Positions 27,068 through 32,000 of a DNA stretch of 32,000 nucleotides are shown in pieces. This DNA is from Vibrio cholerae ATCC 14035 (GTDB taxonomy: Bacteria; Pseudomonadota; Gammaproteobacteria; Enterobacterales; Vibrionaceae). Location of the stretch: the NCBI RefSeq assembly GCF_000621645.1, contig NZ_JHXR01000014.1, forward strand, positions 120,001 to 152,000, in the 5' to 3' direction. Within the stretch, counting starts at the first letter, position 1; every line of letters begins with the position of its first letter. A model generated the notes under the pieces. That model was not told the DNA's origin. It did no database searches and worked only from the letters and a program-made list of their open reading frames with translations. A program made the translations under genes and the position numbers.

Positions 27068-27505
27068 TTACTTAGCAAACACATCTTTGAAGTCACGCTT
27101 CAGAATCGGGTCGCGGCGGGCTTTTTTGATCTGCTTAACCATGTCTTTCACACAGTTGTGTAGCACTTGATCAAGCAGTTGAGCGCGGTACGCGTCTTTA
27201 TCTTCTTCGCTCATCTCTTTAGGAAGGTTCAGCGTTGGGAACTCTTCCATCACGTTTAGACCAGCAAATGCTTGGCTTACCGAGATGAGAGCGTGGAACT
27301 GTTCAAAGTTATCCAGAATATTTTGCGCGCTCGCTGGCAGTGAATCCCATGCTTCGCGAACCACTTCTTCAGAGACTTCATGGATTGAAGTCACCATATG
27401 GAACATCGCTTCAGGCACCTGATCAAACTCTAGAACCTGACGCAGTTCAGGAGAGATGGATTCGAGATCCACTTTTGGTGTTTCGGTTTGGTTTGTCTCA
27501 GACAT
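27068..27505 (-). CDS. Acidic 145-aa cytoplasmic protein of unknown function
   Basis: It is a clean ORF with its own terminator and no TM segment or signal peptide. It is rich in Glu and Asp and predicted helical. I do not recognise a family. Confidence 0.65.
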   Translation of the reverse strand: MSETNQTETPKVDLESISPELRQVLEFDQVPEAMFHMVTSIHEVSEEVVREAWDSLPASAQNILDNFEQFHALISVSQAFAGLNVMEEFPTLNLPKEMSEEDKDAYRAQLLDQVLHNCVKDMVKQIKKARRDPILKRDFKDVFAK

Positions 27506-27776
27506 GGAAAATTCTCATTAGAGTAAAAAACGCCATGCTAAAAACTTATCCCAAAATGTCAATACAACAGCGATAAATTGCCGTTTAGAGCACGTTTAAC
27601 GTTGCTTTTGTCACCAATGCCTTCTTTTATTCTGTCACTTAGCATGACGGGAGAGCATAAGGATCTCCATTTTCTTTTCAGAATCTTTTCTTTGTGGCGT
27701 TGAGTGCCTGAAATTTTAAATCCACCGATTCGGTCTAGAGTAATAAGTACAGTGAATGATTGGTTTGGATTGATTT

Positions 27777-28358
27777 ATGGAAGCCGCTTTTAGCGAATGG
27801 CTCACCTTGCATAGCTGCTCACCCTTTTGGGTGTTTCTTGGCATCGTTGTGCTTTCTTATTTATTAGAAGATGTCGCGATCGTTACGGCGGCGGGGCTCG
27901 CCAGTCAACAGCTCACGCCCATGCCTTTCGCTTTGCTGGCGATATTTATCGGCATCGCAACAGGAGATATTGTGCTTTATTACCTTGGGCGTTACAGCCG
28001 TTATTTTCGCGCAATGCGCTACCGATTATTGACCAATCCATATTTTCGACAGGTCCGTCGCCGCTTATTAGCCAGACCTTTCATTAACCTGTTTACGATT
28101 CGTTTTATTCCGGGGCTTCGCACGGTCGGCTATACGTTAAGTGGTTATGTCGCTTTGCCGCTGCGGCTATTTACGGCTGCGGTATTGATGGCAACCGCTT
28201 TGTGGACGGTGGTCGTGTTTTTCGCCATCTATCAATTAGGCAGTCAGGCTTGGTTTCAGGCCAGTGAATACCGCTGGTGGTGGCTGTGCTTATTGGTTGT
28301 GTTGTTACTCGTTTTTAATCGCGTCTTCAGTGCCAAAATGATTAAGGAAACCGCATGA
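27777..28358 (+). CDS. DedA / VTT (SNARE-associated) family membrane protein
   Basis: The 193-aa product has 4-5 TM segments. The DedA-like pattern includes LLEDVAIVTAAG...GDIVLYYLGR...RFIPGLRTVGYTLSG. Its stop overlaps the next start (ATGA). Confidence 0.78.
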   Translation: MEAAFSEWLTLHSCSPFWVFLGIVVLSYLLEDVAIVTAAGLASQQLTPMPFALLAIFIGIATGDIVLYYLGRYSRYFRAMRYRLLTNPYFRQVRRRLLARPFINLFTIRFIPGLRTVGYTLSGYVALPLRLFTAAVLMATALWTVVVFFAIYQLGSQAWFQASEYRWWWLCLLVVLLLVFNRVFSAKMIKETA

Positions 28359-29491
28359 CAGTTCTTTCTCCCGTGGCATGTATTGCCGAGCATAAAGTGA
28401 ATGCGGGTATGCCTCTTTTAGTTGAGGCCGCCAACGAACGGGCGATCTCGCCTTTTGAATTTCTGCCTAGCTGGTTTTGTTACGCGCCTGTGGTGGTGCA
28501 AAGTGTGCTGCTGGGGCTTTATTACCGTGATTTACGTCTGCCTTTGGTGGCGAATCCCACCATTTATTTAAGCGGTATGGTCGGTGAGTCCAAGCACGAT
28601 ATTTTGAGCCTAGCTGGCGACCAAGCGCGACGTTGGATCTCGCCGTTTATCACTTGCACGGTAAACGATCTGCCTCTCACCGAACAGGTAAAAGCCATTG
28701 AGCAACGTTTACATGACGCAGATTTGCGCTTTCCTTTAGTGGCTAAGCCCGATCTCGGTTGTCGTGGTGTGGGGGTAAAACTCATCCAATCCCATGAACA
28801 ACTGAGCGAGTACCTACGCCGTTTTCCTGTCCAAGCGCGTTTTCTTTTGCAGCAAAAAGCGCCGTATAGCGCTGAAGCGGGGATTTTCTACGTGCGTTTT
28901 CCCGGTGACGCGCAGGGGCAAATCATCTCAATGACCTTGAAATACGCTCCGAGTGTGATGGGGGATGGCGTGCGTACGCTGCGTGAATTGATCCACGCTT
29001 GCCCGCGATCTGGACAACTGGCGCACCTCTATTTACCACGCCACCCTGACAAGCTGGACTGGGTAGTTCCGGACAAACAAGAGTTCCAATTAGCGTTTGC
29101 GGGCAGTCACAGCCGGGGTTCGATTTTTCGTAATGGCAATCGCTATATCACGCCTGCTTTAGTCGAAAAACTGGATGCAATATTTGACGATTTCCCCGGT
29201 TTTCACTACGGCCGACTCGATGTGAAATTTAGCCATATTGATGCGCTCATGCGTGGTGACTCGTTCACCATTCTTGAGGTCAATGGCGCGAGCAGCGAAG
29301 CGACTCATATATGGGATCGCGAAACGCGGCTCGGTGAAATCTTCACTACGTTACTTAAGCAATATCGGATTTTGTACGCGATTGGCGCTGAACAGAGAAA
29401 ACGAGGCCACAAACCGCCAAGTTTGCTCGCTTTATTACGTGCTTGGCGGCAGGAAAAACAATTGATCCAGCACTATCCAGAGACAGATTAG
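28355..29491 (+). CDS. ATP-grasp family ligase (carboxylate-amine ligase-like) with hydrophobic N-terminal segment
   Basis: The 378-aa product has ATP-grasp hallmarks: FPLVAKPDLGCRGVGVKLI (P-loop-like), LLQQK..., and RLDVKF...FTILEVNGASSE (Mg-ATP binding E/N). Its N-terminus includes FLPSWFCYAPVVVQSVLLGLYY. Confidence 0.78.
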   Translation: MTVLSPVACIAEHKVNAGMPLLVEAANERAISPFEFLPSWFCYAPVVVQSVLLGLYYRDLRLPLVANPTIYLSGMVGESKHDILSLAGDQARRWISPFITCTVNDLPLTEQVKAIEQRLHDADLRFPLVAKPDLGCRGVGVKLIQSHEQLSEYLRRFPVQARFLLQQKAPYSAEAGIFYVRFPGDAQGQIISMTLKYAPSVMGDGVRTLRELIHACPRSGQLAHLYLPRHPDKLDWVVPDKQEFQLAFAGSHSRGSIFRNGNRYITPALVEKLDAIFDDFPGFHYGRLDVKFSHIDALMRGDSFTILEVNGASSEATHIWDRETRLGEIFTTLLKQYRILYAIGAEQRKRGHKPPSLLALLRAWRQEKQLIQHYPETD

Positions 29492-29579
29492 CGGAACGCA
29501 TGAGCGCCGAATGCTCTGGAATAACCATAACCAGATATTACAAAGACCGGATATTGAATAAGACATTGAAGGGGATTTT

Positions 29580-30122
29580 ATGCTTGCTGTGACAACCTTA
29601 GCGCAACCATACCGATACTCAGCCGCCATTCATGGCTGTTTGGAGACACTAGAACAAGGGCGCGATTTTTTAAACACGATTGGAGACGATCACTACACCT
29701 ACGTGGCGAAGCCGCATGTGAGCAGCAGTATTGGCCAGCATTTTCGCCATTGGTTAGACATTTTCCATGCGCTGTGCGCTGCGCCAAACACCGTCGATTA
29801 CAACCAGCGTCGACGTGGGCATCCGGTTGAGTTGTCTCGCCAAGTGGCACTTAAGGAGATTGAATCGCTCATCGCATGGTTAGAGTCTGATTTACTACAG
29901 TCACCTCAAATGGCCATTGATGTGGTGATGGAAGTGTCTTTATCGCAAACCGAAAGCTGCACCTTTCATTCAACCTTAGAGCGTGAATTGGCCTTCGCTG
30001 CGCTGCATGCGAATCACCATTTTGCGATGGCAAAAGTGGTGACCAGTTTACTGAACGTGCAAACGCCGAGTGATTTTGGTTTAGCGCCCGCGACCGCCAC
30101 TTTTTTACGAGGCAATGCCTAA
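29580..30122 (+). CDS. DinB-like helical-bundle (putative metal-dependent) protein
   Basis: The 180-aa product has His-rich helix motifs IGQHFRHWLDIFH and ALHANHHFAM, spaced as in the DinB/YfiT-type His triad. A GAAGGGGA SD precedes the start. The assignment comes from pattern only. Confidence 0.55.
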   Translation: MLAVTTLAQPYRYSAAIHGCLETLEQGRDFLNTIGDDHYTYVAKPHVSSSIGQHFRHWLDIFHALCAAPNTVDYNQRRRGHPVELSRQVALKEIESLIAWLESDLLQSPQMAIDVVMEVSLSQTESCTFHSTLERELAFAALHANHHFAMAKVVTSLLNVQTPSDFGLAPATATFLRGNA

Positions 30123-30868
30123 TGTGCTCCGTCACTTGGTCTTTGAGTGACACCGGTTATCAGGTGTTTTTCAATCGCGATGAGCAAAGGAGTCGAGCCT
30201 TAGCGCTGCCTCCCGCCATCTATGATCGACAAGGAGTTGCAGTCATGATGCCGCTCGATCCGCAAGGTCAGGGCAGTTGGATTAGCCTTAATCAGTTCGG
30301 GTTATCGCTGTGTCTGCTTAATAACTATCAAGGCCGAGTGCCAGATGGGACGCTGATCAGCCGCGGATTGCTGCTCAAATCCCTTGCGGGATCCTCTTCG
30401 ATTGAACAAATCACGCTTGCGTTTGAAAAATTGGCGTTGTCTCGTTTTGCTCCCTTCACTCTGCTGGCTTTTGATCCTTTGCTTACTCAACAGCAAGGTG
30501 AGGTATTGGCTTATGCGTGGGATGGCGAACAATTTTGCTCAGGCGTGACTTCATCACCCCTTTTTTCATCCGGTGTTGCGCTTGACGAAGTGCAGCGCTA
30601 TCGCACGCAGGTCTATCAACACCTCACTGCCGATGGAGTAACACCGGAAAAGTTGTTGGCGTTTCACTGCCATCAACACCCACAGTGGCCGCATCTTTCG
30701 GTGGCGATGCAGCGAGACGATGCCCATACCGTGAGTTTTACTCACATCAAGGTCAGTGATGGACAACTGGGAATGAGTTATTTCTCTGGTCGCCCAACGC
30801 AGCTGACAGATCAGATATTGCATCAGCCGCAGTATCCATTTCCTCAAATAATATCTTTGGTTTCTTAA
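30122..30868 (+). CDS. NRDE / TANGO2-family protein (Ntn-hydrolase-like, N-terminal Cys)
   Basis: It begins MC(S)VTW, followed by FFNRDEQ, which is the family-defining NRDE motif. The product is 248 aa. Its start overlaps the upstream stop (TAATG). Confidence 0.75.
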   Translation: MCSVTWSLSDTGYQVFFNRDEQRSRALALPPAIYDRQGVAVMMPLDPQGQGSWISLNQFGLSLCLLNNYQGRVPDGTLISRGLLLKSLAGSSSIEQITLAFEKLALSRFAPFTLLAFDPLLTQQQGEVLAYAWDGEQFCSGVTSSPLFSSGVALDEVQRYRTQVYQHLTADGVTPEKLLAFHCHQHPQWPHLSVAMQRDDAHTVSFTHIKVSDGQLGMSYFSGRPTQLTDQILHQPQYPFPQIISLVS

Positions 30869-30878
30869 GGAGTTCGTA

Positions 30879-31325
30879 ATGAAATATTGGTTTGGTTTAA
30901 TCCTGTTCTTTTTCAGCACATTCACCATGGCGCAAGATCCGATTTACACTGGCACGTTCAGCAATAAAGCGCTGGATGGGTATGACACGGTCGCTTATTT
31001 CACCGAAGGCAAACCCGTTAAAGGGGCCGCGCAGTTTAAAACTGAGTACCAAGGTGCCGAGTGGTTGTTTGCCTCTCAACAAAACCTCGACGCGTTTTTA
31101 GCTGACCCTGAAAAATACGCGCCGCAATATGGTGGCTACTGTGCATGGGCGGTATCTGAGAAGAAGGATTTCGCGCCTGGTGATCCGCAATACTGGGCCA
31201 TTGAAGACGGTAAGCTTTATCTGAACTACAACAATAAGATTAAAGGATTGTGGGAAAAAGATCGGGCGCATCATATCGCTCAGGGCGACCAAAATTGGCC
31301 TGCGCTGATTGGGACAAGCGAATGA
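30879..31325 (+). CDS. Secreted YHS-domain protein
   Basis: The signal peptide is MKYWFGLILFFFSTFTMA|QDP. The YHS-family pattern is LDGYDTVAYF...YQGAEWLFASQQNLDAFLADPEKYAPQYGGYCAW. An AAGGAG SD lies 6 nt upstream. Confidence 0.75.
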   Translation: MKYWFGLILFFFSTFTMAQDPIYTGTFSNKALDGYDTVAYFTEGKPVKGAAQFKTEYQGAEWLFASQQNLDAFLADPEKYAPQYGGYCAWAVSEKKDFAPGDPQYWAIEDGKLYLNYNNKIKGLWEKDRAHHIAQGDQNWPALIGTSE

Positions 31326-32000
31326 TGCAAACCCAGCCATTTCGATTGCCGCGCTTCACCCCATTTGGGGTGATAGAAAAGGGGGTAGAGTTAGCGACGG
31401 GGCTTAGTCAGCTAGAGCGCTATTACCAACAAAGGCCAACCACGCGTGATGGTTTTGAGTTTATGCGTTACACCCTTGAAGCGCTCAATGTGCATTACCA
31501 AGTGGATAGAGGCCGCGTTGAACAGATCCCCGCGCAAGGGCCTGTGGTGATTGTGGCCAATCATCCGCTTGGTGCCATTGAAGGGGTGATTTTGGCCGAT
31601 TTGGTTGGGCAAGTACGCAAAGATGTCAAAGTGCTCGCTAATCAACTGCTTAAACGCTTACCTGAAATTGAACCTCTGTTCATTGGTGTGGATGTGTTTA
31701 ATGGCGCGCAGGCGAGTAAAACCAATGCACGAGGTATTCGAGAAGCACACCGACATTTAGCGGAAGGTGGCGTACTGATCGTATTTCCCGCCGGTGAAGT
31801 TTCGACACCGCAAAAAGAAACCGGACAGTTGAGTGATATTGACTGGAGTCAATCCGTTGCGAAATTCATTCAGCGTAGCCAAGCGACGTGCGTGCCGATT
31901 TATATTTATGGTCGTAACAGCGCGTGGTTTTATCGCGCTGGAAAAATTCATCCGCTCTTGCGCACCGCCATGTTAGGTCGAGAGCTTTTGAATAAAAGCG
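31322..32000 (+). CDS. PlsC-type (lysophospholipid) acyltransferase domain protein, OlsF/'putative hemolysin'-like; 3' end beyond the right edge
   Basis: The frame is open from ATGATG at 31322 to the window end (226 codons, hand-translated, no stop). It is absent from the ORF track because it is truncated. The acyltransferase block reads VVIVANHPLGAIEGVILADL...VLIVFPAGEVS. Its start overlaps the YHS stop (ATGA). Confidence 0.8.
   Translation, partial: MMQTQPFRLPRFTPFGVIEKGVELATGLSQLERYYQQRPTTRDGFEFMRYTLEALNVHYQVDRGRVEQIPAQGPVVIVANHPLGAIEGVILADLVGQVRKDVKVLANQLLKRLPEIEPLFIGVDVFNGAQASKTNARGIREAHRHLAEGGVLIVFPAGEVSTPQKETGQLSDIDWSQSVAKFIQRSQATCVPIYIYGRNSAWFYRAGKIHPLLRTAMLGRELLNKS

Follow-up and report, generated by a model that had tools for sequence, protein, structure and literature searches.

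The last part of a 32,000-nt stretch of the Vibrio cholerae ATCC 14035 genome (contig NZ_JHXR01000014.1, positions 120,001 to 152,000; hereafter the window) carries six same-strand open reading frames (ORFs) that encode, in order, a DedA/VTT-domain membrane protein, an ATP-grasp protein, a DinB-like protein, a TANGO2-like protein, a YHS-domain protein, and an OlsF-type ornithine-lipid (OL) synthase (Table 1). This cluster, and above all the five genes upstream of the synthase gene, is the subject of the present analysis. Because the ATP-grasp protein is encoded identically on chromosome 2 of V. cholerae O395 (CP000626.1) and primers from the literature map onto the window, the genes can be identified as VCA0651 to VCA0646 of chromosome II. 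The ORF list for window positions 27777–32000 places all six where an earlier note, made from the sequence alone, had put them, and reading of the junctions bore out the tight packing described there: ATGA overlaps at 28355 (VCA0651/VCA0650) and 31322 (VCA0647/VCA0646), a TAATG overlap at 30120–30124 (VCA0649/VCA0648), a 10-nt gap between VCA0648 and VCA0647 (30869–30878), and a single 88-bp spacer. Shine-Dalgarno-like sequences lie 5′ of the starts of the ATP-grasp, DinB, TANGO2, and YHS genes. The six domain assignments guessed in that note also held when profile hidden Markov model (HMM) searches were run, that of the ATP-grasp protein through its fold and that of the DinB-like protein only at the level of its orthologues.

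Table 1. Features of the VCA0651 to VCA0646 cluster, in window coordinates
Feature	Position	Strand	Length	Basis or remark
Sequence motif resembling a sigmaE/ECF two-block promoter	27709–27739	+		Upstream of the DedA gene; putative function
VCA0651, DedA/VTT-domain membrane protein	27777–28358	+	193 aa	Pfam VTT_dom
VCA0650, predicted membrane-proximal ATP-grasp ligase	28355–29491	+	378 aa	AlphaFold2 and Foldseek fold
Spacer between the ATP-grasp and DinB-like genes	29492–29579		88 bp	
VCA0649, DinB-superfamily putative metalloprotein	29580–30122	+	180 aa	DinB_2 matches at the level of orthologues
VCA0648, TANGO2/NRDE-family Cys N-terminal-nucleophile (Cys-Ntn) hydrolase homologue	30122–30868	+	248 aa	Pfam and fold
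Fragment with the published low-salt-inducible VCA0646 promoter	30822–31321	+		Mapped primers
VCA0647, exported YHS-domain protein	30879–31325	+	148 aa	Pfam and NCBIfam
VCA0646, ornithine-lipid synthase OlsF2	31322–32000	+	5′ 226 codons	Cut by the end of the window

The function of the sixth gene and the existence of a vca0646-0649 operon are already known. Full-length VCA0646, taken from a related locus (L001), is a protein of 581 aa with a PlsC-type acyltransferase domain (Acyltransf_2, 80 bits; Acyltransferase, 33.1 bits; both above cutoff) that is detected in the window fragment as well and, in the part that lies beyond the window, an OlsB-type N-acyltransferase domain (Acetyltransf_5, 77.5 bits, residues 329–428), so the earlier suggestion of an OlsF-like protein with an N-acyltransferase domain was correct. 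The NCBIfam OlsF equivalog model (NF052615) matches over the whole length of the protein at 436.9 bits, below its cutoff of 620, so that VCA0646 counts as a divergent paralogue. There are two candidate starts, a GTG at 31250, which gives 605 aa and was used in published reporter and expression constructs, and the ATG at 31322, which gives 581 aa; the latter is favored because it is there that homology to the orthologues sets in. Vences-Guzman et al. (2025, PMC12186959) showed by thin-layer chromatography (TLC) and liquid chromatography–tandem mass spectrometry that VCA0646 by itself makes OL in Escherichia coli and is the second functional V. cholerae synthase, 54% identical to VC0489 and 30% identical to the Serratia enzyme. 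According to the same work, it N-acylates ornithine and then O-acylates the product to yield OL, it is required for OL at low salt in V. cholerae, and it contributes to polymyxin resistance. The idea in the earlier note of a new lipid pathway therefore fails for the lipid backbone, since the sixth gene product makes ordinary OL by a pathway already characterized.

The other five genes are tied to this synthase across species. A profile scan with the ATP-grasp protein, using one genome per species, found relatives in at least 559 genomes, and the best 80 loci, from Vibrio, Marinomonas, Aliivibrio, Photobacterium, and Shewanella, were examined by tblastn and ORF mapping. The order and strand of the DedA, ATP-grasp, DinB, TANGO2, YHS, and OlsF genes are kept in about 70 of the 80 species and in five genera, whereas the V. 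cholerae flanks (DUF3069 and glyoxalase genes) are kept only in the clade of V. cholerae, V. mimicus, and V. metoecus. Because order and strand persist in nearly all 80 loci while the flanks vary, the arrangement is not due to chance, and the co-occurrence of the genes in other genomes that the earlier note had made a test of its proposal was found. An OlsF gene, or OlsB/OlsA genes, adjoins the DedA/ATP-grasp pair in 75 of these 80 gammaproteobacterial loci. A seventh gene, encoding a four-helix membrane protein of ~150 aa with weak similarity to DoxX, DoxX_2, and MauE, lies between the YHS and OlsF genes in 49 of the 80 (for example, L006:12950-13399, L007:12945-13400, L015:12931-13401, and L085:12172-12663) and is absent at window position 31322. 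It is present in V. metoecus and V. mimicus, absent in V. cholerae, and frameshifted in V. chagasii (L014). By this distribution, the ancestral cluster is one of seven genes from which V. cholerae lost the DoxX-like gene, and the ATGA junction at 31322 is derived, since the DoxX-like gene occupies that place in the 49 loci. One contig labeled V. cholerae strain BI-5D (L084) carries a divergent copy of the cluster, its ATP-grasp protein being only 62% identical to that of the window; the strain may be mislabeled or the cluster may have been exchanged.

The first two proteins of the cluster appear to act together. VCA0651 matches VTT_dom at 47.8 bits (Pfam cutoff 33.9), and its motifs LED, GD..LY.lG, and RF.PG.R, with their acidic and Arg residues, are kept in 79 orthologues; against the NCBIfam DedA and UptA equivalog models it scores far below the cutoffs, with a weak UptA match. 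VCA0650 has no match in Pfam and reaches none of the Ddl, RimK, or CphA family models; like the DinB-like and TANGO2-like proteins, it was assigned to no NCBIfam family. Its AlphaFold2 model (mean predicted local distance difference test, pLDDT, 89.3) nonetheless has as its best Foldseek matches the G domain of cyanophycin synthetase, GshF, and Ddl, with probability 1.00 and E values from 9e-11, at a template-modeling (TM) score of 0.35–0.47 and an identity of 11–18% to the nearest structures. When the VCA0650 family profile is aligned with CphA2, the KP..G.RG.GV nucleotide loop and the E-x-N Mg2+ motif (ILEINGA) coincide. The modeled structure thus confirms an ATP-grasp fold with catalytic motifs whose nearest structures are carboxylate-amine ligases. 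The database name of VCA0650 and its orthologues, D-alanine–D-alanine ligase, is unjustified: no Ddl model is reached, and identity to solved Ddl structures is 10–15% at a TM score of ~0.35. The protein also has a conserved hydrophobic helix (residues 39–57) and a conserved N-terminal membrane-proximal region, EF.P.W..Y.P...NP...G..GESK. Run against 1.8 billion cluster representatives, the ATP-grasp profile found 3029 matches; of the best 150, 79 are 501–620 aa and 8 are longer. An N-terminal VTT domain is fused to the ATP-grasp domain in seven of the eight representatives of more than 500 aa that were scanned, and in two of the seven fusions, proteins of 850–900 aa, an alpha/beta-hydrolase domain precedes both. 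In Vibrio, the two parts are separate genes joined by the ATGA overlap. To judge by these proteins, DedA and ATP-grasp are one functional unit, and most representatives of the family are VTT–ATP-grasp fusions. No paper linking DedA and ATP-grasp was found in the searchable literature.

Distant relatives of this unit were sampled in eight long-contig contexts and 80 metagenomic loci. Neighbors were classified with single-domain HMMs, because iterated HMMs pulled in multidomain fusions and inflated the counts of DedA, ATP-grasp, and abhydrolase genes. A Pfam census with clustering of 142 operon-chain neighbors counted TANGO2 11 times, BacA 9, lipid kinase 7, DinB_2 7, Acetyltransf_5, Acyltransferase, and abhydrolase 5 each, and YHS 4; by these domain assignments, the neighbors are dominated by lipid enzymes. 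Three types of context were distinguished. Type A resembles the Vibrio cluster: a DinB-like gene stands directly upstream of the unit in 15 loci and a TANGO2-like gene is adjacent in 15, DoxX-like and YHS genes are frequent, and OlsB-type, PlsC-type, or OlsF-type synthase genes lie alongside. Thus, L086 has the order DinB, fusion, Acetyltransf_5 (OlsB-like), Acyltransferase (PlsC-like), and abhydrolase; L089, Acetyltransf_5 (OlsB-like), DinB, and an abhydrolase-containing fusion; L170, DinB, TANGO2, fusion, Acetyltransf_5 (OlsB-like), and Acyltransferase (PlsC-like); L171, DinB, fusion, and an OlsF-type gene; and L118, an OlsF-type gene followed by the fusion. The DinB genes of L170 and L171 are unannotated 177-aa genes that match the VCA0649 family HMM with E = 3e-39 and 3e-35. 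Eight Type A loci have 2.5 kb or more of flanking sequence on each side, and in five of these an aminolipid synthase gene lies no farther than 5 kb away. The L170 cluster is preceded, at a distance of about 4 kb and on the same strand, by a stand-alone LPG_synthase_TM gene (L170:2037-3053), which encodes an MprF flippase-like domain.

In Type B, found in nine loci (L090, L120, L122, L128, L135, L138, L151, L152, and L158), split DedA and ATP-grasp genes are followed by a gene for the undecaprenyl-diphosphate phosphatase BacA/UppP, an arrangement that would connect the unit with the metabolism of carrier lipids in these lineages. Type C, Bacteroidota-like and represented by seven loci and L173, consists of genes for an aldehyde dehydrogenase (541 aa), a VTT–ATP-grasp fusion, and a YegS/DAGK-type lipid kinase; GH20 and beta-propeller genes lie further on in these loci (L094-L109 and L173). 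Two single contexts offer candidate amines. In a Myxococcota metagenome-assembled genome (L087:6143-10947), genes for a pyridoxal-phosphate (PLP)–dependent decarboxylase and cysteine dioxygenase, the route to hypotaurine and taurine, overlap the start of the VTT–ATP-grasp fusion gene, and genes for an alpha/beta-hydrolase and a YHS protein follow it. At L172:6085-9214, an Asp/Glu racemase gene is directly upstream of the fusion gene and a YHS gene directly downstream, which hints at a D-amino-acid substrate in that lineage. These cysteine dioxygenase/decarboxylase and racemase genes are putative, variable donor-supply genes of the same operons.

The three remaining proteins were assigned with differing firmness. 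VCA0649 itself falls below the Pfam cutoffs for both DinB (18.7 bits, cutoff 23) and DinB_2 (15.5 bits, cutoff 24.8), and 21 of 33 orthologues match DinB_2, the best with an E value of 6e-8; together with the invariant residues H54, H57, D60, H143, H146, and H147, these matches support membership of the DinB superfamily at the level of the family. VCA0648 matches Pfam TANGO2 at 27.1 bits (cutoff 22.6), and its M1-C2 start and NRDE motif (N18-R19-D20-E21) are invariant, C2 and the four motif residues in 52 sequences. Its AlphaFold2 model (pLDDT 92.7) finds as its best fold matches human TANGO2 (8sv7 and 9bwa, TM 0.57–0.66), followed by bile-salt hydrolases and penicillin V acylases. Searches of Protein Data Bank sequences with the family profiles of the DinB-like and TANGO2-like proteins gave nothing significant, and TANGO2 was recovered by the fold search only. 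Human TANGO2 is proposed to be a Cys-Ntn hydrolase of fatty-acyl conjugates with Cys2 and Asn25-Arg26-Asp27 as proposed catalytic residues (PMC13044924), and these correspond to Cys2 and N18-R19-D20-E21 of VCA0648. By its modeled fold, VCA0648 is a true TANGO2 homologue and is predicted to be Cys-Ntn hydrolase-like. VCA0647 scores 66.1 bits with YHS (Pfam cutoff 30.3) and 163.2 bits with the NCBIfam model YHS_seleno_dom (NF041384, cutoff 70); its N-terminus is signal-peptide-like and Cys88 in the sequence YGGYCAWA is invariant. Selenocysteine in the YHS protein was considered and rejected: an odd ORF in L070 and L076 is the YHS and OlsF genes in a shared frame, with Cys as the residue, and no selenocysteine was seen in VCA0647 orthologues at any of the loci checked.

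Upstream of the DedA gene, and conserved there in most Vibrio loci, lies a two-block motif, TGAAATTTT, 12 nt, CGGTCTAGA, of the form (G)AA[A/G/T]TTTT, 11–12 nt, C[G/T]NTCT, 60–160 nt 5′ of the DedA start. The strict motif occurs in 15 of 78 loci, all with the 12-nt spacer, against a mean of 2.7 in shuffled sequence. When a position weight matrix made from these 15 was scored on the other 63 loci, 32 scored above the 95th percentile of the shuffled null, where 3.2 would be expected, and 21 above the 99th, where 0.6 would be. The motif resembles sigmaE/extracytoplasmic function (ECF) promoters, E. coli rpoH P3 among them, and we infer a sigmaE/ECF-like promoter at this position. No sigma70-consensus promoter was found on the + strand between 27500 and 32000, there is no terminator-like site in the 88-bp spacer, and terminator-like sites within the cluster are at chance level; a sigma70 promoter or intrinsic terminator within the cluster was accordingly rejected. 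Rfam gave no match at E ≤ 1 for the leader or for the spacer, and a riboswitch or other structured RNA at either place was rejected.

Published expression data bear on whether the six genes are expressed together. VCA0650-1, VCA0648-9, and VCA0646-7 are all down together in one RNA-seq table (PMC7600106), in keeping with the earlier expectation that the six genes are expressed jointly, and they fall along with cpxP, copA/copG, msrB, thioredoxin, glutaredoxin, and an ECF sigma factor, an envelope-stress company that the sigmaE/ECF-like motif fits. That table calls VCA0646 a putative hemolysin, which is a misleading name. A literature search for Cpx together with VCA0647 returned nothing. The further claim that the packing of the genes implies obligatory co-expression is contradicted by an active salt-responsive promoter that drives VCA0646 alone (PMC12186959): the primers of the reporter fragment map to 30822–30842 (2 mismatches) and 31304–31321, and the promoter lies inside the YHS gene. 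A P(VCA0649)-lux reporter from the same study, whose fragment maps to window positions 29322–29630, was weak and had no salt response. HapR activates vca0646-0649 as a four-gene operon (Mashruwala and Bassler 2024, PMC11573629), and the functions of the four proteins are stated there as unknown. On the other side of the leader, a DUF3069 gene (27068–27505, − strand) is transcribed divergently from the cluster and is preceded by the only sigma70-like match in the region (10 of 12 positions, 27535–27562); sucrose phosphotransferase system, LacI-type regulator, and GH32 genes lie beyond.

We propose that the five genes upstream of OlsF2 form a conserved accessory module that serves aminolipids in ligation at the head group, turnover, and translocation, a reading to which we assign a probability of about one half. 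The DedA protein and the membrane-proximal ATP-grasp protein would act as one unit with the logic of the MprF synthase/flippase: the ligase would activate a carboxylate at the expense of ATP and couple it with an amine on a lipid head group, and the DedA part would present or translocate the lipid. The likeliest ligase substrate here would be the free alpha-carboxylate of OL, with an amine donor that varies by lineage. The TANGO2-like Cys-Ntn enzyme may act on a fatty-acyl or head-group amide by cleavage or transfer, serving turnover, editing, or the supply of a donor, and the DinB-like metalloprotein and periplasmic YHS protein (and DoxX) could contribute auxiliary steps that depend on metals or thiols. 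Transcription of the entire cluster probably starts from the sigmaE/ECF-like envelope-stress promoter upstream of DedA; others have shown that OlsF2 is expressed alone at low salt and that HapR raises the downstream four genes. ATP-dependent head-group elaboration and DedA-mediated translocation are plausible, and both roles are strengthened by the DedA–ATP-grasp fusions and by synteny across phyla. That the reaction is specifically an amidation of a carboxylate is rather unlikely. A broader proposal, which we advance tentatively and likewise regard as rather unlikely, is that VCA0651/VCA0650 founds a family of ligase-translocases for membrane-lipid head groups, widespread and so far undescribed, that, in aminolipid clusters, would amidate the free carboxylate of OL with a lineage-specific amine (ammonia, hypotaurine/taurine, or a D-amino acid), with the TANGO2 homologue as the matching lipid amidase/transacylase. 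This family would include the missing ATP-dependent OL taurine transferase; ATP-dependent transfer of taurine to the OL carboxyl exists and its gene is unknown (2026 OL review, PMC12971839). A module of DedA/ATP-grasp, DinB, and TANGO2 (with YHS and DoxX) linked to aminolipid synthases is, as far as we found, undescribed, and the literature searchable here describes no function for the five accessory genes.

Several observations weigh against a module that acts on aminolipids. TLC of 14C-ornithine-labeled V. cholerae lipids detected radioactivity at the origin and in OL only, under conditions that induce VCA0646 alone, and OlsF2 alone suffices for OL synthesis in E. coli (both PMC12186959). 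Modified OL has never been reported for Vibrio, biochemically or by lipidomics, and deletion of vca0646-0649 had no cell-death phenotype (PMC11573629). Among the species-level loci, both of those from Marinomonas spartinae (L013 and L024) have no adjacent OlsF gene, a convergent amino-acid permease gene following the cluster, V. harveyi (L073) is without DinB and TANGO2, and a single Shewanella sp. locus (L085) is without TANGO2. Three of the eight well-flanked Type A metagenomic loci have no aminolipid synthase within 5 kb, and since Types B and C put the unit beside BacA/UppP or a lipid kinase, its substrate in general may be something other than an aminolipid. Both the hypotaurine (L087) and the racemase (L172) contexts are single loci, and the promoter upstream of DedA is a putative one, recognized by its motif.

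Some of these points would suit a different account, in which the five upstream genes respond to envelope, thiol, or copper stress and share no more than location and regulation with OlsF2, without acting on OL; DedA could recycle undecaprenyl phosphate or another carrier lipid, and a small metabolite related to thiols could be the concern of the other proteins. Translocation of undecaprenyl phosphate is a known activity of DedA proteins. The weak UptA match of VCA0651, the subfamily of the unit that is followed by BacA/UppP in nine loci, and the Type A loci with no aminolipid synthase nearby all point the same way, as do the thiol or metal flavor shared by DinB, DoxX/MauE, and the YHS protein with its invariant Cys, the sigmaE/ECF-like motif, and the co-regulation with cpxP, copA/copG, msrB, thioredoxin, glutaredoxin, and an ECF sigma factor (PMC7600106). 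We nevertheless judge this account rather unlikely, because OlsF or OlsB/OlsA adjoins the unit in 75 of the 80 gammaproteobacterial loci and synthase adjacency recurs in at least five loci of unrelated lineages, with other gene orders and other fusion states; as Acetyltransf_5 genes are rare per genome, such adjacency is hard to explain without shared function. The nearest structures of VCA0650, being the amino-acid/peptide ligases Ddl, GshF, and cyanophycin synthetase, also allow for an ATP-grasp enzyme that works upstream of OlsF or parallel to it, making an amino-acid substrate (a dipeptide or D-amino-acid conjugate) or ligating a free 3-hydroxy fatty acid to an amino acid to give a lyso-aminolipid. 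The Asp/Glu racemase of L172 and the alpha/beta-hydrolase or thioesterase-like domain fused to the unit in proteins of 850–900 aa would fit such chemistry, and a third, ATP-dependent, GH3-like OL pathway was recently described (PMC12493201). Yet OlsF2 alone makes ordinary OL in E. coli, and V. cholerae makes VCA0646-dependent OL when the promoter of that gene alone is induced (PMC12186959); the same clusters encode an OlsB-type N-acyltransferase, beside which a second N-acylation route would be redundant, and the DedA membrane domain to which the ligase is fused speaks for a substrate embedded in the membrane rather than a soluble one, all of which makes this alternative unlikely.

Least probable is that the cluster is a quorum-sensing–controlled cell-death, toxin, or defense module. 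HapR control and the T6SS (type VI secretion system)-independent cell death seen in colonies on co-overexpression of vca0646 and vca0647 (PMC11573629) suggested it, and vca0647 has scored in T6SS-susceptibility screens; the two T6SS assays disagreed, however, and deletion of the operon gave no cell-death phenotype (PMC11573629). VCA0646 is a proven lipid synthase, and death upon its overexpression is most simply OL overproduction, that is, membrane perturbation by excess OL. The DNA of vca0647 also provides vca0646 with its native promoter and its translational coupling. PADLOC models matched none of the six proteins at E ≤ 0.01, by which a known anti-phage defense system was rejected, and many free-living marine genera keep the cluster, together with partners of a biosynthetic type.

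Ornithine lipids affect resistance to polymyxin and stress, and V. cholerae has two OL synthases; the five genes welded to the second show a conservation that reaches from Vibrio as far as Myxococcota-like and Acidobacteria-like lineages. If those genes do modify, flip, or recycle a lipid, a new aminolipid modification pathway would be identified, together with a substrate for a DedA paralogue and a new ATP-grasp family that databases misname D-Ala-D-Ala ligase. The published "cell-death operon" would then be reinterpreted as a lipid-remodeling cluster under quorum-sensing and envelope-stress control, and what TANGO2-family enzymes do could be tested in the context of a bacterial operon. Should the TANGO2 homologue be a lipid amidase/transacylase, it would provide a first clue, and one open to genetic study, as to which reaction the human disease protein TANGO2 catalyzes, and should the taurine-ligase reading be true, the family would include the OL taurine transferase, an enzyme that has lacked a gene since the 1970s.

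Among known systems, the closest are the OlsF enzymes of Serratia proteamaculans and of V. cholerae itself (VC0489), which VCA0646 resembles in its PlsC-type N-terminus, its OlsB-type C-terminus, and the OL it makes in E. coli. It differs in responding to low salt and HapR rather than PhoB and in sitting in a conserved accessory cluster of five or six genes, a setting whose role has been described for no OlsF. MprF, the aminoacyl-phosphatidylglycerol synthase and flippase, appears to share with this locus the logic of a cytoplasmic head-group enzyme coupled to a lipid-translocating domain, and cationic-peptide resistance has been linked to both; they have neither fold nor chemistry in common, however, with VTT/DedA and ATP-grasp carboxylate activation here in place of aminoacyl-tRNA, so that the likeness would be one of functional analogy alone. 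Cerilipin synthesis in Gluconobacter cerinus (Tahara 1976-78) includes an ATP-requiring amide ligation onto the OL carboxyl, the type of reaction that would be expected of an OL-linked ATP-grasp enzyme, and one distant VCA0650 homologue, at the single locus L087, is co-operonic with cysteine dioxygenase and a PLP decarboxylase; taurine-OL is unreported in Vibrio, and VCA0650 fits by enzyme class only. With human TANGO2 and the Cys-Ntn choloylglycine hydrolases (bile-salt hydrolase, penicillin V acylase, acid ceramidase, and NAAA), VCA0648 shares, in its predicted structure, the alphabetabetaalpha fold, Cys2, and the NRDE motif. Identity is just 14–16%, and the bacterial gene lies in an operon of lipid enzymes, a context that the eukaryotic protein lacks. 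VCA0650, finally, shares its fold and its ATP and Mg2+ motifs with the cyanophycin synthetase G domain, the GshF ATP-grasp domain, and Ddl, which implies carboxylate-amine ligation chemistry, and is set apart from them by its membrane-proximal N-terminal region and its coupling to DedA.

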